Assembly (NCBI GenBank): GCA_035513775.1
Contig: DATKBR010000099.1
Coordinates: 1,879 to 65,878, forward strand
Source: Candidatus Limnocylindria bacterium
Lineage (GTDB): Bacteria; Chloroflexota; Limnocylindria; Limnocylindrales; CSP1-4
Direction of reading: 5' to 3'
DNA length: 64,000 bases
The translations under genes and the position numbers were made by a program. Under the pieces are notes generated by a model that was not told the DNA's origin, searched no databases, and worked only from the letters and a program-made list of their open reading frames with translations. Positions 4,012 through 52,472 of this stretch are shown one piece after another (the first letter of the stretch is position 1; each line of letters begins with the position of its first letter).

Positions 4012-5025
4012 TTAGGCGCGGGCTGCGTCGGCGCTATGGATGTCGGCCTCGAACTCGTTGTCGGGATTAGCGGCCCCCACCTCGTCATTCGCCTGGACAC
4101 CGGCGAGGCGCCCGCGGGCGGTCACGATGATCGCCACCGCAGCGAGGATCACGGCCGACGCAACGACCGTACGCATGCTAATCGGCTCGCGCAGGAAGAC
4201 CGTGCCGAGCGCCACGGCCACGACCGGGTTGACGTAGGCATACGTCCCGACGAGCGAGAGCGGCGCGTTGCGCAGCAGCCATGCGTACGCGGTGTACGCG
4301 AGCATGCTCCCGAAGAGGATCAGGTATACGACCGCGATGATCGATGCCGACGAGACCGCCGCGGGGTCGAACGTCGCAGGCTCACCAACGATCAACGACT
4401 CGATCCCGGTCAACGCGGCGCCGGCGAGCATCTGGAGGCCGGACGCGCTCAGCGGGCTGGGCGGGAGCTTCGCCCGCCGGACCGAGTAGATCGAGCCGTG
4501 CGCCCAGCCCAGCGGGCCGAGGAACAGGATCAAGAGGCCAAGCGGATCGAAGTGGTTGGCGCCGTCACCGGATGGCCAGACGAGGAGCGCGACGCCGGCG
4601 AAGCCGAGCGCGACGGCGAACGCGACGAGCCGCGGCAGCCGCTCACGCAGGTACAGCCAGCCTAGGAGCGCGAACCAGAGCGGCATCATCCCGACAAGGA
4701 TCGCGGCGATGCCTGACGGCACGGTCTTCTCGCCGACGCCGACGAACGCATTGCCGATGCCGAGCAGCAGGCCGCCGACGATCATGGAGTCCACGACCTG
4801 CCGCCGGGTCGGTAGGTGCCGCGAGCCCGGGTGCCGCAGCAGGTCCCATGCGACCAGGATCAGGCCGGCGATCGCAAACCGGATCGTGGCCATGAGGAAC
4901 GGCGGGATGGTCTCGATCGCGACCGCGATGCCGAAGTACGTGGAGCCCCAGACGACGTAGATGATCGCGAGGTTCGCCCACATCGCGAGGCCGCGCGGTC
5001 GACGCCAGGCCGCGAACGTTGGCAT
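4012..5025 (-). CDS. EamA/DMT-superfamily transporter
   Basis: Only the C-terminal 337 aa of the 530-aa ORF is protein-like: ten hydrophobic segments and two EamA-type halves. The ATG at 5025 (MPTFAAWRRPRGLAMWANLAIIYVVWGSTYF) is chosen, with an alternative ATG at 4983. The upstream part of the ORF is Arg/Pro-rich GC-shadow. Confidence 0.8.
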   Translation of the reverse strand: MPTFAAWRRPRGLAMWANLAIIYVVWGSTYFGIAVAIETIPPFLMATIRFAIAGLILVAWDLLRHPGSRHLPTRRQVVDSMIVGGLLLGIGNAFVGVGEKTVPSGIAAILVGMMPLWFALLGWLYLRERLPRLVAFAVALGFAGVALLVWPSGDGANHFDPLGLLILFLGPLGWAHGSIYSVRRAKLPPSPLSASGLQMLAGAALTGIESLIVGEPATFDPAAVSSASIIAVVYLILFGSMLAYTAYAWLLRNAPLSLVGTYAYVNPVVAVALGTVFLREPISMRTVVASAVILAAVAIIVTARGRLAGVQANDEVGAANPDNEFEADIHSADAARA

Positions 5026-43306: not shown

Positions 43307-44050
43307 CTAGGCCAGCAGATTCCGCGGGGCTCCGATCTGTCGGAACTCATTGTCAGCTCGCTCGACGTGGCGTTTGCCGTTCTGCAGCGAGAACGTCAGA
43401 TGTCCCGGCAAGAGCGCGTCGAATTCGAGTTGCCGAAGTTTCGCCATCGAAGCCGCGTAGTCGGGAATGCTGACGTCGACGACGTTCTGGAGGACGATCT
43501 TGCCGCCCCAGAAGACGGCGTCGCCGGAGAAGAGGTAGCGGCGGTCGCTGCCCTGCAGCAGGTAGCAGAAGTGACCCTTGCAGTGACCGGGCGTGTAGAT
43601 CGCCTCGATCCGGAACCGTCCGACGTCGATTGTCTCCCCGCCGAGGAGCTCTTCGTCGACCTCACACGGCTCCAGGACGTACTCGGGCGGGTAGAAGTTG
43701 AAGCTCTGCGCCCAGGCCAGGCCATTCCAGTAGGAGTCACCCTGGCGGATGGGATCTGCCGCCTCCTGCCCAGTGATCACGCGGCTGCCGTAGGACCGCT
43801 TCCAGCCGGCCAGCCCACCGGCGTGGTCGGCGTGGTAATGAGTGACCAGCACCTTCGTGATCCTTGACGGATCAAGCCCGTCTGCTCGGATGTTCGCCTC
43901 TATCTGAGCCTGAGCAGGACCGAACCCGGCATCAATGAGAACGAGCTCATCACCGCCGTCGATCAGATAGACATGACTGTCCTTGGAATGGGTCATGTTC
44001 AGGCCGTTGTCGCCGCCGGCAACCAGGTACACATCCTGTGTCAGTCTCAA
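43307..44050 (-). CDS. MBL-fold metallo-hydrolase (paralogue 2)
   Basis: A TTG start at 44050 is chosen because GGGAGG lies 6 nt upstream. It gives (M)RLTQDVYLVAGG, colinear with paralogue 1 (VRLTNDVHLVGGG) and of identical 248-aa length. VTHYHADHAGG is present. Confidence 0.72.
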   Translation of the reverse strand: MRLTQDVYLVAGGDNGLNMTHSKDSHVYLIDGGDELVLIDAGFGPAQAQIEANIRADGLDPSRITKVLVTHYHADHAGGLAGWKRSYGSRVITGQEAADPIRQGDSYWNGLAWAQSFNFYPPEYVLEPCEVDEELLGGETIDVGRFRIEAIYTPGHCKGHFCYLLQGSDRRYLFSGDAVFWGGKIVLQNVVDVSIPDYAASMAKLRQLEFDALLPGHLTFSLQNGKRHVERADNEFRQIGAPRNLLA

Positions 44051-44372
44051 GGCAGACCTCCCGCGGGAATTCGTGCTCACAGGGCAGCCATCCGGATGCC
44101 GCCACGCCCCTTGGCCGTTGTGCGCCGGAGTGTACGTGAGCAGCGCGTCCCGGACTTCGCTTCCAGCAGTTGCTGAAGGCATTCGTCGGCCCCGGGACCA
44201 GGTCTCCGTCGTATCCGTACGCGGCGATCTTCAGGACGGTTTGGGCGACGATCGCCGACGTCGATCCGCACGGCAAGCGATGTCGATGCCGGCCTCGGTC
44301 AAATCCGGGACCTTCAGGGCGACGACGGCGAAGGGTGTGGGCGAGGGGCGATGACGTGGCCAATCCCGGGCG

Positions 44373-45497
44373 TCACTGCACGCGTCCTCTGGCGGCAACG
44401 CGCCAGCGGTCGACGACCGCTCCGGACTCCGCGACCAGCAGCTCGTCCGTGAGGTTGACGACCGTGCAGGCATGGCTCGGGATGATGGCCACGCGGTCGC
44501 CGACCCGCAGCGGCGAGCCCGGTGGCACGGCGATGATCCCGTGCTCCTCGTTGACGCGCACCACCTGGTAGTCGGGCCGGTCGGCGAGCTGCCCTACGAT
44601 CGGAGGGGCGCCACGCTTGTTCACGCGGTCCGATGAGAGGGTCTTGGAACCCGCGTCGACGACGACCCAGCTGTGGTGCACGCTGACGACCGTCGCCACG
44701 ACCCAGATCGCGACGTCGTCCAGCGTGGCCGCTCCCTGGGCGACGGTGGTCACGTCGTGGAACACGTAGGTGCCGGGGCGCAGCTCGGTCACGCCTGGAG
44801 CCCGCATCCCGAACCGGGCGGTCGCCGTCGAACCGACCGAGACCCGGTTGACCTCCAACCCGCGCGCCCTGATGGCCTCCGCGACCCACACGACCTGGGC
44901 ACATGCCGCGAGCGTCTCGCGCTCCAGCTCGGCGTGGGTGGCCGAACGGGGCAGCGCATGGCCTTCGTGGGTCAGGACGCCGTCAAAGCCGATACCGGGC
45001 AGGGCTGCGATGTGCAGCGCAAGGTCGACCGCGCCCTCGTCCGGTGGCACGCCGATGCGGTCCAGCCCAGTGTTCAGCTCCAGGAGCACGGGGATCACCA
45101 GGCCGCGGGCGTGCGCGGCCCGGCCGATCGGCGCAGCGACTTCGAGCGAGTCCAGGCTGACCGAGAGCTGGACTCGCTCCGCGAGGTCCAGCAACCGCGC
45201 AACCTTGGCGGCACCAACGACCGGGTAGCCGATGAACAGGTCCGTGACGCCGCTGGCCAGGAGCACCTCCGCCTCGCCGAGCTTGGCCACCTGCAGCCCG
45301 GACGCCCCGGCGTCCAGCTGCATCCGGGCAATCTCGAGCGTCTTGTGTGCCTTGGTGTGAGGTCGGAGGCCCCTGCCGCTGTCCCTGGCCATCGCCGCCA
45401 TCCGCTCGACGTTGCCGCGGACGACCGGTGCATCGACCACGACAGCCGGCGTGTCGGGGACGGCGTCGAGGACCGCCAGCCTTTGGTCGAGGGTCAT
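44373..45497 (-). CDS. DSD1-type PLP enzyme (D-serine dehydratase / D-threonine aldolase-like), second copy
   Basis: The ATG at 45497 is preceded by GGGAGGG. PAVVVDAPVVRGNVERMAA...LRPHTKAHKTLEIARMQL carries the PLP lysine. The C-terminal block VNEEHGII...GDRVAIIPSHACTVVN is present. Confidence 0.8.
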   Translation of the reverse strand: MTLDQRLAVLDAVPDTPAVVVDAPVVRGNVERMAAMARDSGRGLRPHTKAHKTLEIARMQLDAGASGLQVAKLGEAEVLLASGVTDLFIGYPVVGAAKVARLLDLAERVQLSVSLDSLEVAAPIGRAAHARGLVIPVLLELNTGLDRIGVPPDEGAVDLALHIAALPGIGFDGVLTHEGHALPRSATHAELERETLAACAQVVWVAEAIRARGLEVNRVSVGSTATARFGMRAPGVTELRPGTYVFHDVTTVAQGAATLDDVAIWVVATVVSVHHSWVVVDAGSKTLSSDRVNKRGAPPIVGQLADRPDYQVVRVNEEHGIIAVPPGSPLRVGDRVAIIPSHACTVVNLTDELLVAESGAVVDRWRVAARGRVQ

Positions 45498-45693
45498 GTC
45501 GCCAGTCCCTCCCGCCGATCCGCGTTCGCCACTTGCCGGAGTCCGTGACCTGCACGGAGGATATCCTGCTGCTGCCGCCCGGCCGTGGCGGGGATCGGCC
45601 TCGTGGCCGCGAGCCTGCGCGACAAGCCGACTGCCTGTACGACAGTATGACGATGCGCCCGCCGACGAGCGCGCATCATGCTGAGTGCTCGCA

Positions 45694-46893
45694 ATGGCCT
45701 CGACCTCGACCACGCTCCTCACCTTCGCGATCGATCTCCTCGATGAGGGGGCCGATGTCGTTGCGCGGCGCGCGGTGGACGCCGGCTTGACCTGTCTATC
45801 GACGACGGCCGCCTACCATGCCGGCCGCGACCTTCTCCCGCACAACCCGGTGCGCTCCATCGCGTACCAGCCGAGCGGCGCCGTCTACTTTCAGCCGGAC
45901 TGGGGCGTATATGGTGACGACATACTGCGTCCGGTAGTGGCCCCGGTCGTCGGTTCGAGGGACGTGATGGTCGAGCTTGCGGAGGCCGCGACCCGGCACG
46001 GCCTGGCGACGTCGGCCTGGACGGTTATCCTGCACAACTCCCGCCTGGCGGAGGCGAGGCAGGACCTCGCCCCGCAGACGGCCCTCGGCGACCGGCTCCT
46101 GCACATGCTGTGTCCGGCGAACCCGGCGGTCCAGGCGTACGCCACCGCCTTGGCCTGCGACATCGCGGGTCGCGGGCCGTCGATCATCCACCTGGAGTCG
46201 ATGACCTACCTGCCGTTCGACCACGGCGGTCATCACGAGCGGGTGATGATCCCGCTCCGCGCTCAGGAGCGACGAATGCTCGGCGTCTGCTTTTGTGGCG
46301 CCTGCATCGAGGCGGCGAAGGCAGGCGGCGTGGATGGAGACGCCGTTCGCCGCGCAGTCGGGCGGCATCTCCGGTGCGTGCTCGACGGTCCCGGGAGCGC
46401 GATCGGCGACGCGGATCCATCCCTCGAGCGGATGCTCGATGACTACCTGGCGACCCGCCGAGCGATGATCTCGGCCTTCGTCGAGCACGTCTCCGGAAGC
46501 GTGCGCTCAAGGGCGCCGAACGTGGAGATCGCCGTCATCGACGTGTCGGGCTACTTCGCCTCGTTGGACCCGCGCACCCGATCAGTCGACGTCGCGGCCA
46601 GCGATGGCTTCGACCTGGGCAGGATGGCAGGGCCGGTCGACCGCGTCTCGGTCACGGCGTACTTCCAGGACGTCGAGCGATACCGGCGCGAAGTGTCCGA
46701 CTACGTAGAGACCCTGGGTGACCCGTCGCTGCTCGAGGTGATCCTCCGCCCTGGCCCGCCCGACAGCCACAGCCCAGAAGACCTACGACTCCGCGTGCAG
46801 ATTGCTCGCGACGCGGGGGTCCGTCATCTCGCGTTCTACAACTACGGGATGATGCGGCTGGAGGCGCTCGACTGGATCCGCGCAGCCCTCTAG
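45694..46893 (+). CDS. uncharacterised conserved protein, paralogue B (CFCxxC motif)
   Basis: ATG at 45694, with an alternative GTG at 45685. MASTSTTLLTFAIDLLDEGAD...AWTVILHN...GGHHERV...CFCGACIEAAK...FYNYGMMRLEALDWIRAAL is colinear with 9932-11158. Confidence 0.7.
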   Translation: MASTSTTLLTFAIDLLDEGADVVARRAVDAGLTCLSTTAAYHAGRDLLPHNPVRSIAYQPSGAVYFQPDWGVYGDDILRPVVAPVVGSRDVMVELAEAATRHGLATSAWTVILHNSRLAEARQDLAPQTALGDRLLHMLCPANPAVQAYATALACDIAGRGPSIIHLESMTYLPFDHGGHHERVMIPLRAQERRMLGVCFCGACIEAAKAGGVDGDAVRRAVGRHLRCVLDGPGSAIGDADPSLERMLDDYLATRRAMISAFVEHVSGSVRSRAPNVEIAVIDVSGYFASLDPRTRSVDVAASDGFDLGRMAGPVDRVSVTAYFQDVERYRREVSDYVETLGDPSLLEVILRPGPPDSHSPEDLRLRVQIARDAGVRHLAFYNYGMMRLEALDWIRAAL

Positions 46894-47167
46894 CGAGCCC
46901 ACTCCGGCGAGGAGCCGCGGCACCCGGAGGCGGCCTGCGGGCGCGGATCGCAGGCACGGACTTGATGCGCGGTCAACACTCCCGGACCCGTCGGTCGTCG
47001 AGATCGGTCGCGGGAACCACGCTCGGCTTCGTCATCGTCGACGCTGAGCACTCGAGGACCGGGGGAGACGGTCGACCGCCTCGTCAACAGCGGTCGCGGG
47101 TCTGTTGTCGACAGTCGTGCGGTCGACCCCGCCGGGCGCATCGCCTGGCATTTCACCCGTCGCCGGG

Positions 47168-47980
47168 CTAGGCGGCAAGGGTGGCGCCCGACGCCGGACG
47201 GCATTCCCGGCAGGCTCGGTAACCCGCGGCCACGGCTGCCGCCAGCGACCGGAACGGGACTCGATGCCGGGGCGTGATCCGCTTCGCGTTGTGGCAGGTC
47301 GGCAGGCAGACGATGTGCGTCGTATCGGAGCCGCTGTACCGGGTCCCCGCCTCCGCCTCCGCCTCGAGCCAGTCCGTGTCCAGTCCTTCGGCGGCCAGGA
47401 TCCGGCGCTTCGCGTCCGGCCCGCCCATCGAGTACTGCCCGATCATCCCGTCACTGCGAACCACGCGGTGACAGGGCACGACGAGCGGCACCGGGTTGTG
47501 GGCGAGCGCGCTCCCGACAGCCCGAACGGCCTTCGGCTTGCCGATCTCCGCCGCGATCCAGCCGTACGGCCGAACCTCGCCGCGCGGGATCTCCAGCGCC
47601 TTCGTCCAGACCGCGACCTCGAACGGCGTGTGGCCGCGCAGGTCGAGGTCGATCCGGACCCGACGATCGCCACCGAGGCGCTTGCCGATGGCCGTCGAGA
47701 GTCGCGCCGGCAGCTGCTCCGCCGCCGCGATGTCGCGACCGACCGCCGACCGGAATCGCGTCTCGAACTCGGCGCGGTCGCCGGCGGGCGTGACCCACGA
47801 GACGCCGCGGCCGTTCCAGGCCACGAACACGGTGCCGAGGGGCGTGTCGATCGGCGCGTAGTGGTCCGCGAGCCCGGCCTCGACCAGCGCTCCGAACCCG
47901 ACCGAGGTCGGGGCAATCGCCCGCAGGCCGCGCAGGGCATCCCGGAGCCCATGATCGGTGAGCGGCGTGGCGTTGGTCAT
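47168..47980 (-). CDS. ogt: methylated-DNA-[protein]-cysteine S-methyltransferase with a C-terminal Ada-type zinc (methylphosphotriester-repair) domain
   Basis: The MGMT active site VPCHRVV is preceded by the N-terminal MGMT domain (IDTPLGTVFVAWNGRGV). The C-terminal CLPTCHNAKRITPRHRVPFRSLAAAVAAGYRACRECRP matches the Ada N-domain pattern C-x3-C...AAGFRPCKRCxP. The ATG lies in an ATGA overlap with the sigma-factor stop. Confidence 0.85.
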   Translation of the reverse strand: MTNATPLTDHGLRDALRGLRAIAPTSVGFGALVEAGLADHYAPIDTPLGTVFVAWNGRGVSWVTPAGDRAEFETRFRSAVGRDIAAAEQLPARLSTAIGKRLGGDRRVRIDLDLRGHTPFEVAVWTKALEIPRGEVRPYGWIAAEIGKPKAVRAVGSALAHNPVPLVVPCHRVVRSDGMIGQYSMGGPDAKRRILAAEGLDTDWLEAEAEAGTRYSGSDTTHIVCLPTCHNAKRITPRHRVPFRSLAAAVAAGYRACRECRPASGATLAA

Positions 47981-48630
47981 CGGACGGCCTCCGTGGCCGG
48001 CAGCAGGCGAGCGGCCCGCTGCCGTTGGGTGGTGGTGTGGGTGTGCTCCGGCCCGTCCTCGAGCAGGACGCGCAGCTCGCGCAGCCCGCGATGGACCTGC
48101 GCCTTGACCGTGCCCTCCGGCCGGCCCAGCGCCTCGGCGGCCTCGGCGACCGACAGCCCATCGACGTGCCGGAGGACGATGGCGGACTGGACGGCCGGGG
48201 TCAGACGAATGAGCGCGGCCGCGAGCTCCCGTTGCGTCTCGCGGCGATCCGCCGCAGTCGCCGGTGCACCTCGGCCGTCGGCCGGCGGGTCGAACCCCGC
48301 GTCCAGCATCGGCTCGAGCGAGCCCGGTGGCTGCCGGTCATCGTGTCGCCGGCGCCGATTGCGCGCCAGGTTGACGGCGATCGAGGCGAGCCACGGCCGG
48401 AGCCTGAGCGCGGCGATCCGATCGCGCGGGTAGCCGTGCATGGCCCGATACGCCCGGACGAGTGCGTCCTGCGCGACCTCCTCGGCATCGCGCCGATCGC
48501 CGAGCAGGCGCAGGGCGATCGTAAACAGCCGGTCCGAATGCTCGGTCACGAGCGCTGGAAACCCCGCGTCGACATCCCGGGCGAGCCGTTCGGCGAGCGC
48601 GACATCGGTGTCCATCGAGCGATTCAACAC
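47977..48630 (-). CDS. ECF-type RNA polymerase sigma-70 family factor
   Basis: 217 aa with region 2 (LFTIALRLLGDRRDAEEVAQDALVRAYRA) and region 4.2 (VLRHVDGLSVAEAAEALGRPEGTVKAQVHRGLRELR). GTG start at 48630, with an alternative ATG at 48615. Confidence 0.9.
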   Translation of the reverse strand: MLNRSMDTDVALAERLARDVDAGFPALVTEHSDRLFTIALRLLGDRRDAEEVAQDALVRAYRAMHGYPRDRIAALRLRPWLASIAVNLARNRRRRHDDRQPPGSLEPMLDAGFDPPADGRGAPATAADRRETQRELAAALIRLTPAVQSAIVLRHVDGLSVAEAAEALGRPEGTVKAQVHRGLRELRVLLEDGPEHTHTTTQRQRAARLLPATEAVR

Positions 48631-48741
48631 GCTGTCCCGGGATTCGGTTGCGCAGTCGGCGCGCCCGGCTTGCCGCCGCAGCGTCGGGCCACCCGAGGCG
48701 GCGGCCGCCGCGAGGCGTCGATCGAGCCGCGGTCGCTGGCG

Positions 48742-49185
48742 CTACTCCGTGATCGTGATCGAGCCCGGCATCTGCCCGTGCAACGTGCAGTGGAACGCGA
48801 AGGTTCCAGCCTTCGAGAAGGTGAGGCTGCGCGTGCCGCCACCACCGTCGATGTTCCCGTCCATCGTGCAGGTTCCGTCGTCGAACGCGAGCTTGTGCGG
48901 GGCGTCATCACCGTTCGTCCAGGTGACGACGTCGCCGACCTTCGCCGTCACCGAGCCCCACGCGAACCCGCCCACGCTGGTCTCGACGTCCGTCGCCGCG
49001 GTGGTCTCCTCGCAGACCTTCGCCATCTGGGTTTCCGCGGGCGGTTCGCTCGTAGCAGGTGGGATCGTGGCCACCGGTCCCGACGTGGGGGCCGCCGTCG
49101 GCGCCGGCGTCGGCGTCGCGCCGCCACACGCGACGAGCAGGACGGCGGAGGACAGGGTCGCCAGACCGCGGACGAATGGGCGCAT
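48742..49185 (-). CDS. cupredoxin (plastocyanin/amicyanin-like blue copper) lipoprotein
   Basis: The ATG at 49185 is preceded by GGAGGA. It has the signal plus lipobox MRPFVRGLATLSSAVLLVACGG, a Pro/Thr-rich linker, and type-1 Cu ligands: H in DDAPHKL and C-x2-H-x2-M in FHCTLHGQM. The rest of the 650-aa ORF is shadow. Confidence 0.8.
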   Translation of the reverse strand: MRPFVRGLATLSSAVLLVACGGATPTPAPTAAPTSGPVATIPPATSEPPAETQMAKVCEETTAATDVETSVGGFAWGSVTAKVGDVVTWTNGDDAPHKLAFDDGTCTMDGNIDGGGGTRSLTFSKAGTFAFHCTLHGQMPGSITITE

Positions 49186-49257
49186 CGGATCCTCCAGGGC
49201 AGTCGTTGTGCGCGTCACGATAGCGCGGCGGGCGCCGCTTCCTCGTATGGTTCGTCC

Positions 49258-50205
49258 GTGGGCGGCGTTCGGATCTTTGACCACGACCTTGCCCGCCGGC
49301 TGGTGCTCCACGAGGCCCGGGCCCAGCAGACGCCCACGCGAGAGCTGCGTGATCTTGGCGATGGCTGGCTGTTCCACGACACGGGCGACGCCGAGCCCTT
49401 CTGGAACCGGCTCGTCGCGCCGCAATGGCCGGTTGGCAGCGCCGCCTTCGATCGTCGCCTCGACGAGGTGATCACGCTGTTCTCTGCCCTGGGCCGCCTG
49501 CCGCACGTTCGCCCGCTGCCGCTTGGCGGGACGCCGGCCGATCTCGCCGGGCGTCTCGCCACGGCGGGCTTCGAGACCGTCGGGGCGGATCTGCGGATGG
49601 TCCTCATGCATCACGGCGATGCGGATGCGCTGGTGGCGGCGCTGACGGCGAGGGTCGAGCGGGCATTCGGGGGCGGGTCGGCGGTCACGGTGAGCCGGCG
49701 CGAGTGGAACCGCGGCGCGGGCCGTGCAGGGGACGGGACGCGCGGGACGGGCCGGCCTGGACGTGCGGGCAGCCCGGGCGCGTCCGTCAGCAGGCAGTGG
49801 GCGGAGCGTCGCCGGTGGGCGGTCGATGCCTCGCTGGTGCTCGCCGACGCGTTCGGCGTCGACCCGAACCGGCGCGTCGCGCTGGAGAACGACGTCCTGG
49901 CCTGCGTCTCTCGGCCCGGCTGCTCGGTCGTCCTGCTGTCGATCGACGGCGTGCCCGCCGCGATCGCCCGCCGCGCCACGACCGACGCCGGCAGCTACCT
50001 GTCGTCGATCGGCACGCGGCCGGCGTTCCGTGGCCGCGGGCTCGGTGGCCTGGCGACCGCGATCGCGGTACGCGACGCGCTCGGTGCCGGCAGCGAGGTG
50101 GTCCATCTCGGCGTCGAGGCCGAAAACGAGCCGGCGCAGCACTTGTATGAGCGCCTCGGCTTCGCCACCGTCGGCGAGGCCGCGCCGGACCTGTTGCTGC
50201 GGTGA
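49258..50205 (+). CDS. GNAT-family N-acetyltransferase (two-lobed)
   Basis: GTG at 49258. The C-terminal GNAT core is IGTRPAFRGRGLGGLATAIAVRDAL...HLYERLGFATVGE. Only the last 315 aa of the 726-aa ORF is protein-like. Confidence 0.7.
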   Translation: MGGVRIFDHDLARRLVLHEARAQQTPTRELRDLGDGWLFHDTGDAEPFWNRLVAPQWPVGSAAFDRRLDEVITLFSALGRLPHVRPLPLGGTPADLAGRLATAGFETVGADLRMVLMHHGDADALVAALTARVERAFGGGSAVTVSRREWNRGAGRAGDGTRGTGRPGRAGSPGASVSRQWAERRRWAVDASLVLADAFGVDPNRRVALENDVLACVSRPGCSVVLLSIDGVPAAIARRATTDAGSYLSSIGTRPAFRGRGLGGLATAIAVRDALGAGSEVVHLGVEAENEPAQHLYERLGFATVGEAAPDLLLR

Positions 50206-50217
50206 TCGAGTAGTGAT

Positions 50218-50280
50218 CCGGCGATCAGCACCGGCGATCCGCCGGCGATCCGCCGGCGATCCGGCGATGATCCGGCGATG
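50218..50280. repeat. cluster of six CCGGCGAT direct repeats, mostly at 11-bp spacing
   Basis: CGGCGAT starts at 50219, 50232, 50243, 50254, 50262 and 50273. The cluster fills the 72-bp gap between the GNAT stop and the next ATG at 50278, and the last copy contains that ATG. Confidence 0.85.
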
Positions 50281-50739
50281 AGCTGGCGTGAGCTGGTCGA
50301 TGCCGCCGAGGCCGTCCGCGCCGCGGCGTTCACCTACGACGCGTCGCTCGAGGGCCTGCCGCTTGCCGGAATCGGCTGGGCGGCCGTCGATTTCGAGCGC
50401 GCACAGCAGGAGCTCGACGCCCGGCTGGGCCTGGAGGAGGACGACGCGGCCACACCGTGGACGCCGATCGCCCGTGATCCGGCGCTCGGGGCGCGCGCGT
50501 GGCTCCGGTCGGCCGGCGAGACAGGGCCGCCCGATATCCGCCGGCCCGCCCTCGTCCTGCTGGAGCCGGACACGGAGGGACGCATTGCCGCCTCGCTGGC
50601 GCGATTCGGCGAGGGCGTGGCGGTCATCTACCTGGGCGACGGGCCGGCCGGACCAGGCCGCCTCCTCCGCGGCGGCGGCATGTGGGGCCCGCACGTCGTT
50701 GTCGTCGGCAGCAGCGGCGGTAACGAGGGCACGGCATGA
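50278..50739 (+). CDS. hypothetical protein (possible glyoxalase/VOC-like fold)
   Basis: 153-aa ORF with an ATGA overlap to the downstream DUF4032-like gene. GIGWAAVDFERA...LLEPDTEGRIAASLARFGEGVAVIYL is weakly VOC-like. Confidence 0.5.
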   Translation: MSWRELVDAAEAVRAAAFTYDASLEGLPLAGIGWAAVDFERAQQELDARLGLEEDDAATPWTPIARDPALGARAWLRSAGETGPPDIRRPALVLLEPDTEGRIAASLARFGEGVAVIYLGDGPAGPGRLLRGGGMWGPHVVVVGSSGGNEGTA

Positions 50740-51947
50740 CCGAGGCGTCGGAGTTCCCGCTCCTCCGCCTTCGGCGCACTGAGGGCCTGCTCGACCTCCC
50801 GTGGGAGCTGCCGCTGGCGGCGTGGCCGGACGAGCTCGCCTTCCGCGAGCTTGCGGTCGGGCCGTCGCGGCACCTGGTGCGCTTCCTCGTCGTCGATGGC
50901 GTCCTCGTGGCGCTCAAGGAGGAGCCCATCACGGTGGCCCGGCGCGAGTACGCAGTGCTGGGCCACCTGGAGCGCGTCGGACTCCCGGCCGTGCTGCCGA
51001 TCGGCATCGCGGAGCACACCCGGACCGGCAGCGCGATCCTGGTCACCGAGTACCTCGCGCACTCGCTCCAGTTCCGGCGGCTCCTCGCCCGGTTCCCACT
51101 TGGGCCGGGGCCGTACCGGACGCGCCTCCTCGATGCCATGGCTTGGCTTCTCGTCGACCTTCACCGGGGCGGCGTGTTCTGGGGCGATTGCTCGCTCGCG
51201 AACACGCTGTTCCGGCGCGACGGCGACCGGATCCAGGCCTTCCTCGTCGACGCCGAGACGAGCGAGGTCCATCCCGCTCTCTCCGACGGCCAGCGGGCCT
51301 TCGACCTCGACATCCTCGTCGAGAACGTGGGCTTCGGCCTGGCCGACGTCGCGGCGCTGCAGGGTCGCCCGGAGGACTTCGATGACGCGGTGGCCTCCGC
51401 CGAATCTGTTCGCGCCCGCTACGAGGCGATCTGGGACGAGCTGCACCTCGAGCCGGCGATCCCGGCCGGCGACCGGCACGCGATCCGGAGCCGCCTCCGA
51501 CGCCTCAACGACCTGGGCTACGCGGTGGACGAGATCGAGGTCGTGCCCCAGGGGGCCGGCTCCGAGGTGCGCGTGCGCATGACGACGTCGAATCGTGCCT
51601 TCCACGCGCACGAGCTGGAGCGGCTGACGGGGCTCGTCGCGCTCGAGGGCCAGGCGCGCCTCCTGCTCAACGACCTGCGCGAGCACGTCGCCTGGCTCGA
51701 GCTCTCGACGGGCCAGCGCATGCCGATGGCCCAGGGCGCGCGCCGCTGGCGGCGCGAAGTCTTCAACCCGGCGATCCGGCGCCTCCGAACGGCGATCCGC
51801 GGGCGCGACCCGGTCCAGGCGTACTCCGACGTCCTGGAGCACAAGTGGCTTCTCTCGGAGCGCGAGGGCCGCGACGTGGGCCTGGATCGCGCGACGGCCG
51901 CGTACCTCGCCGAAGGGGCTCCGGCGCCCGAGACGCCGCTCGGCTGA
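50736..51947 (+). CDS. DUF4032-type protein with Kdo/RIO-like kinase fold N-domain
   Basis: 403 aa. VALKEEP, LVTEYL and HRGGVFWGDCSLANTLFRRDGDRIQAFLVDAETSE show the kinase-like catalytic and DxE pattern. The C-terminal EHKWLLSEREGRDVG is typical of DUF4032. Confidence 0.7.
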   Translation: MTEASEFPLLRLRRTEGLLDLPWELPLAAWPDELAFRELAVGPSRHLVRFLVVDGVLVALKEEPITVARREYAVLGHLERVGLPAVLPIGIAEHTRTGSAILVTEYLAHSLQFRRLLARFPLGPGPYRTRLLDAMAWLLVDLHRGGVFWGDCSLANTLFRRDGDRIQAFLVDAETSEVHPALSDGQRAFDLDILVENVGFGLADVAALQGRPEDFDDAVASAESVRARYEAIWDELHLEPAIPAGDRHAIRSRLRRLNDLGYAVDEIEVVPQGAGSEVRVRMTTSNRAFHAHELERLTGLVALEGQARLLLNDLREHVAWLELSTGQRMPMAQGARRWRREVFNPAIRRLRTAIRGRDPVQAYSDVLEHKWLLSEREGRDVGLDRATAAYLAEGAPAPETPLG

Positions 51948-51950
51948 TGC

Positions 51951-52472
51951 CTACCAGCCCTCGCGGTGGAGCACCTCGTCGATCGGCCGGCGGCCGCCGG
52001 CCTTCGGTGGCCTCGTGAGGTCCTCGGGATCGGCGGGATAGCCGAACGAGAGGATGTAGCCGCACCACCGATCCTCCGGATAGCCGAGGACCTCGCGGGC
52101 GACGGGCTGCTCGTACACCGTAGCTGGACAGCTGCCGATCCCGAGCTCCCACCCCGCCAGCATCATGTTCTGGGCGGCGAGGCCGGCGTCCCAGACGAGC
52201 GATAGCGACGCACCCGGCGTCGTGGGGTCGGGCGTGACGAGCCCGATCGCCGCGGCCGCGCCCCCGAGGTGGCCCGCGTGCGGCCCGACCTCCGCGAGAC
52301 GCCGGAGCGTGGATCGGTCCTCGACCACGACGAAGTCCCAGCGCTGCTGGTTCTTGGAGCTGCCCGCGTGCCGCCCCGCGTCGACGATCCGGAGGAGGTG
52401 CTCGGAGGCGATCGGGCGGTCTTCGAAGCGGCGGACCATACGCTTGGTGCGGATCGCCGTCCAGGTGTCCAT
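51951..52472 (-). CDS. nitroreductase-family protein
   Basis: 173 aa; MDTWTAIRTKRMVRRFEDRPI...AGRHAGSSKNQQRWDFVVV is the typical nitroreductase N-terminus. Confidence 0.85.
   Translation of the reverse strand: MDTWTAIRTKRMVRRFEDRPIASEHLLRIVDAGRHAGSSKNQQRWDFVVVEDRSTLRRLAEVGPHAGHLGGAAAAIGLVTPDPTTPGASLSLVWDAGLAAQNMMLAGWELGIGSCPATVYEQPVAREVLGYPEDRWCGYILSFGYPADPEDLTRPPKAGGRRPIDEVLHREGW

Follow-up and report, generated by a model that had tools for sequence, protein, structure and literature searches.

The stretch of DNA analysed here (the window) comprises 64,000 nucleotides of contig DATKBR010000099.1 from a Candidatus Limnocylindria bacterium. Its minus strand carries a gene for an extracytoplasmic function (ECF) sigma factor, followed directly by a gene for a 270-residue protein (the partner) in which a DNA alkyltransferase is joined to a zinc domain of the type found in Ada of E. 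coli (Table 1). Its ancestry and the conserved pairing of the two genes make the partner the very probable regulator of the sigma factor.

The open reading frame (ORF) of the sigma gene, taken at its full 217 residues, matches Sigma70_r2 (E 8e-13) and Sigma70_r4_2 (E 1.4e-14) in Pfam, and the sigma70-ECF superfamily TIGR02937 in NCBIfam with 76.8 bits against a cut-off of 42.9. The protein consists of sigma2 and sigma4 only, with a linker of about 35 residues between them, and contains no cysteine. These matches identify it as an ECF sigma factor (sigma-70 group 4). The true start is probably ATG 48615, giving 212 residues, because the alternative GTG at 48630 falls inside a conserved −10 element, and the ATG-GAC is conserved. 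The TGA of the sigma gene and the ATG of the partner gene share 4 nt (ATGA), as a preliminary description of this DNA had reported.

The same description had read the partner as a complete MGMT module with a PCHR active site, preceded by a 40-residue extension and followed by an Ada-like Cys4 motif, and each of these elements is borne out. The extension is real, as the canonical MGMT N-domain begins at about Y41 and the ORF cannot run further upstream. Pfam places DNA_binding_1 (MGMT, PF01035) at residues 119–199 (E 1.6e-30), and the PCHR site contains Cys170. Residues Y139, R153, N162, C170, H171, R172, Y183 and E198 are invariant in 69 homologues, that is, in species with sequences 61–78% identical to the window partner. 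The partner thus has a complete O6-alkylguanine-DNA methyltransferase (MGMT/Ogt) module. At the C-terminus, residues 213–262 match Ada_Zn_binding (PF02805; E 4e-8, 33.5 bits against a cut-off of 23). A phmmer match to the N-terminal part of Ada (N-Ada; Protein Data Bank (PDB) entry 1adn) and an alignment to 1adn, 1wpk and 1u8b pair C225, C229, C257 and C260 with Ada Cys38, Cys42, Cys69 and Cys72. Across the 69 homologues, three of these four cysteines (C225, C229 and C260) show no variation, and C257 is kept in at least 90%; of the residues that correspond to the DNA contacts of N-Ada, R255 and R261 never vary, and T220/T221 are conserved to at least 90%. These alignments assign the C-terminal domain to the Ada-type zinc domains, with C225 equivalent to Ada Cys38.

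An AlphaFold2 (AF2) model of the partner (mean pLDDT 88.7, pTM 0.80) agrees with this architecture. Its top Foldseek match is 1sfe, the C-terminal part of E. coli Ada (C-Ada; E 5.7e-13), and its C-terminal domain matches 1wpk (N-Ada) with a probability of 0.98. The partner lies outside the E. coli type of Ada, scoring 108 bits on the Ada equivalog NF011964 in NCBIfam, where the cut-off is 345. A Pfam scan of the 270-residue ORF found no helix-turn-helix (HTH) family, in line with the earlier remark that an AraC-type HTH is lacking. One other Ogt, of the plain form, is encoded in the genome (contig C78), so the MGMT copy of the partner can be specialised. The partner holds the only Ada_Zn domain of the genome.

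Table 1. Features of the sigma-partner locus, in window coordinates
Feature	Position	Strand	Details
ECF sigma gene	47977..48615	−	212 residues from the conserved ATG (probable start); mechanical ORF start GTG 48630 (217 residues)
ATGA overlap of sigma stop and partner start	47977..47980	−	plus strand reads tcat; translational coupling
Partner gene	47168..47980	−	270 residues: putative anti-sigma-domain remnant, MGMT, Ada-type zinc domain
Partner N-terminal extension, residues 1–40	47861..47980	−	invariant positions, hhalign, model
MGMT module (N-domain and DNA-binding/catalytic domain)	47384..47860	−	acceptor Cys170 codon 47471–47473
Ada-type Zn(Cys)4 methylphosphotriester-acceptor domain, residues 213–262	47195..47344	−	C225 codon 47306–47308
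Predicted ECF-type promoter of sigma	48626..48652	−	conserved motif; −35 at 48652–48644, −10 ending at 48626

Conservation of the sigma-partner pair

We collected related loci from 80 species-level genomes, mostly labelled Limnocylindria or Chloroflexota. A sigma gene stands directly upstream of the partner gene in all 77 loci that have upstream DNA, and the 4-nt overlap is kept in 70 of 76. All 120 best matches to the partner have both PF01035 and PF02805. Searching 1.84 billion cluster representatives with a profile returned 563 clusters at E<1e-30, and we sampled eight distant lineages: L086, L087, L088/89 (Ktedonobacterales), L090, L092/93, L094, L167 (Longimicrobiales) and L168 (Thermoanaerobaculia). 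In all eight, an ECF sigma gene lies directly upstream of the partner gene and overlaps it by 1, 4 or 11 nt; the remaining neighbours vary. The sigma factors of these lineages are 39–49% identical to the window sigma, and its closest paralogue in its own genome is 36% identical. The survey of ECF/MGMT co-occurrence suggested in the preliminary description thus finds the pairing well beyond this genome. With the conserved 4-nt overlap, the partner gene has the position typical of class I anti-sigma factors, adjacent to and co-transcribed with an ECF sigma gene. No other regulator is conserved beside the pair in the window or in the contexts of the distant loci.

Such a distribution makes it highly improbable that the two genes are neighbours by accident or through an annotation artefact, with no functional link. 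The pair has been kept in every related and distant locus while the surrounding genes differ, and the promoter described below is common to these lineages.

The pairing itself is not new. It has been catalogued already, as groups ECF122 and ECF203, in which an MGMT gene occupies position +1 and, for ECF203, Ada_Zn_binding also occurs in the context; the authors of the classification suggested a role in DNA damage repair (Casas-Pastor et al. 2021, PMC7826278; bioRxiv 10.1101/2019.12.11.873521 supplement). MGMT is also listed as a possible non-canonical ECF regulator in a review (PMC8999054).

Several candidates for natural fusions of sigma and partner were rejected. P0121 and P0124, found with a concatenated query, contain Arg-rich out-of-frame stretches and are frameshift artefacts; P0183 and P0248, which came from the search of cluster representatives, carry a partial sigma only, and their printed stretches are equally garbled, so that we take them as frameshift artefacts too. 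These four predictions (sigma+MGMT), together with P0205 (MGMT+EamA, from Pfam matches only), could mislead surveys of domain architecture.

Two further observations concern the distribution of the pair. In genome G013, of the same genus, two promoter sites (L114 and L115) are each followed by a sigma-MGMT-type operon, which suggests a duplicated module. Partners 67–79% identical to that of the window (L006, L016, L019, L042 and others) sit in metagenome-assembled genomes labelled Patescibacteria, Eisenbacteria, Binatia, Methylomirabilota or Dormibacterota. These labels are probably binning or labelling noise, and phylum counts built on them are therefore unreliable.

Promoter and predicted regulon

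The sigma gene of the window is preceded by a −35 element (C)GCAACCGA and a −10 element CGTGTT, which we summarise as GCAAC-N18-GTT. Of 75 related loci, 74 have the sequence TGCAAC(C/G)GA...CGTGTT upstream of sigma, with a constant spacing to the conserved ATGGAC, and the GCAAC-N18-GTT motif recurs at the distant loci L086, L087, L092 and L094. ATG 48615 starts about 10 nt downstream of the −10 element. The sigma mRNA is thus predicted to be leaderless or nearly so, with the transcription start site placed from this geometry only.

We then scanned the 2.46-Mb genome with a position weight matrix (PWM) of the motif. The promoter of sigma itself is the top match, with 30.5 bits against a null maximum of 14.7. 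A second strong site (22.3 bits) lies on contig C105, 116 nt upstream of a gene for an EamA-family transporter. The pattern is matched at 56 sites in 20 genomes of the genus, and the reversed control at 18. Among about nine high-scoring sites other than sigma promoters, five are located just upstream of EamA transporter genes, and in several of these the ATG again lies about 10 nt past the −10 element. In Ktedonobacterales a 21.8-bit motif stands ahead of an operon of EamA, sigma and partner genes, and at L092 an EamA gene is divergent from sigma. The EamA-family transporter is therefore predicted to be the sole recurrent extra target of the sigma factor. EamA as a universal member of the regulon was dropped, as the motif precedes it in 3 of 18 carrier genomes; it is a recurrent member only.

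No alkA, alkB or aidB-like target was found among the predicted promoter sites. The earlier proposal that alkylation damage is relayed through the sigma factor as an alternative adaptive response must accordingly be narrowed: the predicted regulon consists of the operon itself and EamA, and not of an Ada-like set of repair genes.

Three minor features accompany these sites. On contig C105 (L084, G000), the stretch that separates the second promoter from the EamA start codon contains a (GTGGGT)x4 hexamer repeat, at about 4540–4560. At L143 (G010:C130:1-298), a 28-bit motif precedes an ORF that weakly resembles the MGMT N-domain (blastp E 0.057) and is cut by the contig end; it may encode a stand-alone alkyltransferase under the same sigma. 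A motif of 23.7 bits at L160 (G018:C1:476042-477427) precedes the gene of a different ECF sigma factor by about 235 nt, which could reflect cross-regulation or chance.

The N-terminal extension and anti-sigma ancestry

In the N-terminal extension of the partner, L19, A23, P24, G36 and D39 are invariant across the 69 homologues, and L32, L37 and A38 nearly so. The AF2 model shows two helices in residues 1–40 (9–18 and 25–34, pLDDT 61–74). The extension alone, as a 45-residue query, gave no meaningful Pfam match. Its origin is indicated by long-form relatives of about 300 residues, whose N-terminus is a zinc anti-sigma domain (zf-HC2, HxxxCxxC). On the long form P0171, zf-HC2 scores 26.3 bits in Pfam against a cut-off of 22.2; C3, H29, C33 and C36, which include the HxxxCxxC, are invariant in 12 diverse long forms; and precomputed annotation shows the combination PF13490+PF01035+PF02805 for many among the 120 best long-form matches. 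The AF2 model of the long-form N-terminus has four helices and a low-confidence stretch near the junction of helices 3 and 4, as has been described for class I anti-sigma domains (PMC7406223).

A profile–profile alignment made with hhalign joins the two forms. Residues 8–270 of the window partner align with long-form residues 42–303, and residues 8–40 fall on 42–75, directly after HxxxCxxC. As the alignment lies past the CxxC, the extension is homologous to the end of helix 3 and to helix 4. This homology marks it as what is left of the closing portion of a class I anti-sigma domain (ASDI), including the sigma2-binding helix 4. Helix 4 of ASDI binds sigma regions 2.1/2.2, the surface that touches the clamp helices of RNA polymerase, and holds 12 of the 14 strongest co-evolution contacts (PMC7406223). 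The four-helix definition of the class (ASDI/ZAS, PF13490) applies to the long-form relatives and not to the window partner, which has no Cys or His motif in residues 1–40 and only the two short helices. On the evidence of the alignment, true anti-sigma fusions are either the ancestors or the sisters of the window partner.

Structure-based searches were less informative for this part of the protein. Foldseek comparisons of the short and long models with the PDB gave only MGMT and N-Ada, and no anti-sigma fold, among the 50 matches listed per model. The only match of the long-form N-terminus to PDB sequences is ChrR, and it is weak (E 4.8). A tree of the MGMT core, built to tell whether the short form is derived, was set aside as poorly resolved: the two forms are intermixed, which takes at least 10 changes, and the seemingly 'no-Zn' proteins in it may in many cases be fragments.

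We also took a census of domains in the 150 best of the 563 cluster representatives, calling the zinc domain by a simple Cys-pattern test. A short extension is present in 75 of the 150; the zinc domain accompanies it in 39 and is absent from 36, although some of the latter may be fragments. A long extension is present in 26, of which 12 carry the zinc-binding anti-sigma (ZAS) motif, and all 12 have the zinc domain. An overlapping sigma gene is kept beside zinc-less partners at L087, L092, L094 and L168. As zinc-less relatives keep the sigma gene, the zinc domain is accessory and is not the essential link. From this comparison, the invariant partner of the sigma factor is the extension plus MGMT, to which the Ada-type site adds a second possible input. 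The preliminary description had cast the Ogt/Ada-Zn protein as sensor or anti-sigma partner. Its regulatory role is supported by the anti-sigma ancestry and by the coupling to the sigma gene and the autoregulatory promoter, both of which recur in different phyla, but the anti-sigma-like part is the N-terminal extension, which had been overlooked, and not the zinc domain.

Alternatively, the partner might be only a co-expressed output of the sigma factor, its extension a functionless relic, with the sigma factor controlled elsewhere, for instance in its own transcription or by a factor not linked to the pair. The window partner has indeed lost most of the anti-sigma domain. ECF sigma factors without anti-sigma factors are known (PMC8999054), and both ECF122 and ECF203, which are 100% actinobacterial, are listed with no putative anti-sigma factor, a TetR repressor being proposed for ECF203 (PMC7826278; 10.1101/2019.12.11.873521). 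However, a relic would be expected to decay or vanish, and the extension instead keeps five invariant and three nearly invariant positions over 69 species. A positively autoregulated sigma factor would, moreover, lock on without an inhibitor. The stop/start overlap kept in most related loci is typical of sigma/anti-sigma stoichiometry, and no other conserved regulator stands beside the pair. We thus regard an output-only partner as rather unlikely.

A different alternative accepts the partner as a real anti-sigma factor but takes its unusually nucleophilic thiolates (the MGMT Cys, the Zn-Cys4 and, in the long forms, the ZAS site) as sensors of electrophiles or oxidants, as in RsrA, with a response of detoxification and export. 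The only recurrent extra member of the regulon is an exporter of the EamA/DMT type and not a repair gene, and the long forms carry a ZAS motif of the type that is redox-sensitive in RsrA. Furthermore, Ada Cys38 is directly methylated by SN2 agents such as methyl iodide. On the other hand, the residues used by MGMT for DNA binding and base flipping (Y139, R153, N162) are invariant and the DNA contacts of N-Ada are kept, which argues that DNA lesions are real substrates. The short form has also lost the ZAS site. Electrophile sensing of this kind is, in our judgement, unlikely.

A suicide methyl acceptor as a candidate anti-sigma factor

On balance, the pair probably forms a two-gene, self-inducing sigma/anti-sigma module in which the anti-sigma factor is itself a suicide methyl acceptor, although our preference for this reading is a slight one. 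From the architecture, ancestry and conservation of the pair, its promoter and the EamA sites, we infer that the partner binds the sigma factor and releases it on methylation. The sigma factor and the 270-residue partner would be made in coupled amounts from one near-leaderless transcript. The partner would keep the sigma factor inactive mainly through its N-terminal helix, the putative remnant of anti-sigma helix 4, which in class I covers regions 2.1/2.2; the MGMT body may add contacts to sigma. The partner would then take up a methyl group irreversibly, on Cys170, with O6-methylguanine as donor, and/or on Cys225 at the zinc, with methylphosphotriesters or, directly, SN2 methylating agents as donors. 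Methylation would alter the conformation or stability of the partner and thereby free the sigma factor. The free sigma factor would transcribe its own GCAAC-N18-GTT promoter, replacing the consumed repair protein, and would also induce the EamA-family exporter encoded on another contig of this genome.

In a more detailed version of this proposal, the truncated anti-sigma factor would count damage by being consumed. For every methyl group accepted from DNA, one such molecule would be irreversibly disabled and one sigma factor freed, so that the output of repair protein and EamA would scale with the alkylation load. This Ada-independent circuit would be common to lineages labelled Limnocylindria, Ktedonobacterales, Thermoanaerobaculia and Longimicrobiales, whether with a full or a remnant anti-sigma domain, and would be the first switch in which a DNA lesion is covalently transferred onto an anti-sigma factor. 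We consider this version quite conceivable, though somewhat short of probable. Among characterised anti-sigma factors, none is known to us in which the fused sensor is a covalent, single-use methyl acceptor.

Several points weigh against the sigma/anti-sigma reading. Helices 1–2 of the anti-sigma domain are missing from the window partner, as are the zinc motif and the greater part of helix 3; a helix-4 remnant on its own may be unable to inhibit, and the AF2 confidence of the extension is only 61–74. The motif upstream of the C105-type EamA gene occurs in only 3 of 18 genomes, its own included, and one of the three has a 19-nt spacer only. No genuine sigma-partner fusion was found among the candidates, so that of the survey suggested earlier, for co-occurrence or fusion, only widespread adjacency emerged. 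The listing of ECF122 and ECF203 as purely actinobacterial groups with no putative anti-sigma factor also counts here, and in the literature searched we found no experimental study of interaction, methyl transfer or induction.

The module resembles several known systems in part. ECF122 shares the MGMT gene at +1. It is actinobacterial, whereas the relatives of the window locus are labelled Limnocylindria or Chloroflexota; its predicted promoter reads CTCAC-Xn-CGTCTAC, and its sigma factors have a shorter linker and a cysteine in sigma2, whereas the window has GCAACCGA-N-CGTGTT, no cysteine and a linker of about 35 residues. Direct membership in ECF122 was therefore rejected, on mismatches to the group description in promoter, sigma2 Cys, linker and phylum. 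ECF203, likewise compared by group description, shares MGMT at +1 with Ada_Zn_binding. Its context includes a conserved TetR repressor, an HTH protein and MFS, whereas the window pair is flanked by a cupredoxin gene and a 402-residue ORF without Pfam match; none of the other ORFs in 44000–52000, read from their translations, looked like TetR or MFS. ECF51 of Actinobacteria has a predicted promoter, GCAACCG-Xn-GCGTGTC, nearly the same as the window motif by motif description, but its partners are class I anti-sigma factors with one transmembrane helix, whereas the window partner is an MGMT fusion.

Like E. coli Ada, the partner unites two suicide methyl-acceptor modules (Zn-Cys4 and PCHR) in one protein, and we propose for it the same logic of a repair protein that is both sensor and output of its own induction. 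The order of domains differs, as Ada has Zn-HTH-MGMT and the partner has MGMT followed by the zinc domain, with no AraC-type HTH. Ada binds DNA directly, whereas the output of the partner would pass through a separate sigma factor, and targets of the alkA/alkB/aidB type used by Ada were not found for the window sigma. As in the window, the genes of the class I anti-sigma factors RsrA, ChrR and RslA lie directly downstream of an ECF sigma gene and overlap it, and ChrR is, like the partner family, a cytoplasmic sensor fused to an anti-sigma domain. These proteins have the full anti-sigma domain, whereas the window partner keeps only its last 35 or so residues, with no HxxxCxxC.

The readable parts of the ECF122 and ECF203 sources do not mention an anti-sigma ancestry of the partner, the dispensability of its zinc domain, a promoter outside Actinobacteria or EamA as a target. 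If the proposed mechanism is true, it would explain the control of ECF122- and ECF203-like groups, which are listed with unknown mechanism and no anti-sigma factor. It would also add a covalent, single-use input to the known routes of sigma release (proteolysis, redox, partner switching and phosphorylation). Abundant soil and freshwater lineages without an Ada regulator, all of whose members considered here are uncultured, would then possess a second, sigma-based adaptive response to alkylation. A 212-residue sigma factor, a 270-residue sensor and a 30-bp promoter would together make a simple alkylation-responsive genetic switch.

Little else in the surroundings bears on the pair. A scan of 46700–48900 found neither a sigma-70 promoter nor an intrinsic terminator. 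The 402-residue ORF (45685–46893, plus strand) is convergent with the operon and has no Pfam match at E<=0.001. About 110 bp upstream of sigma lies a gene for a cupredoxin/plastocyanin-type lipoprotein of 147 residues (48742–49185, minus strand; Pfam Copper-bind). A very similar 3' coding end (...TTCCACTGC...CAC...ATGAAGGGCACGATCACGATCTCGTAG) precedes sigma in most of the closest relatives listed and not in the remoter ones.

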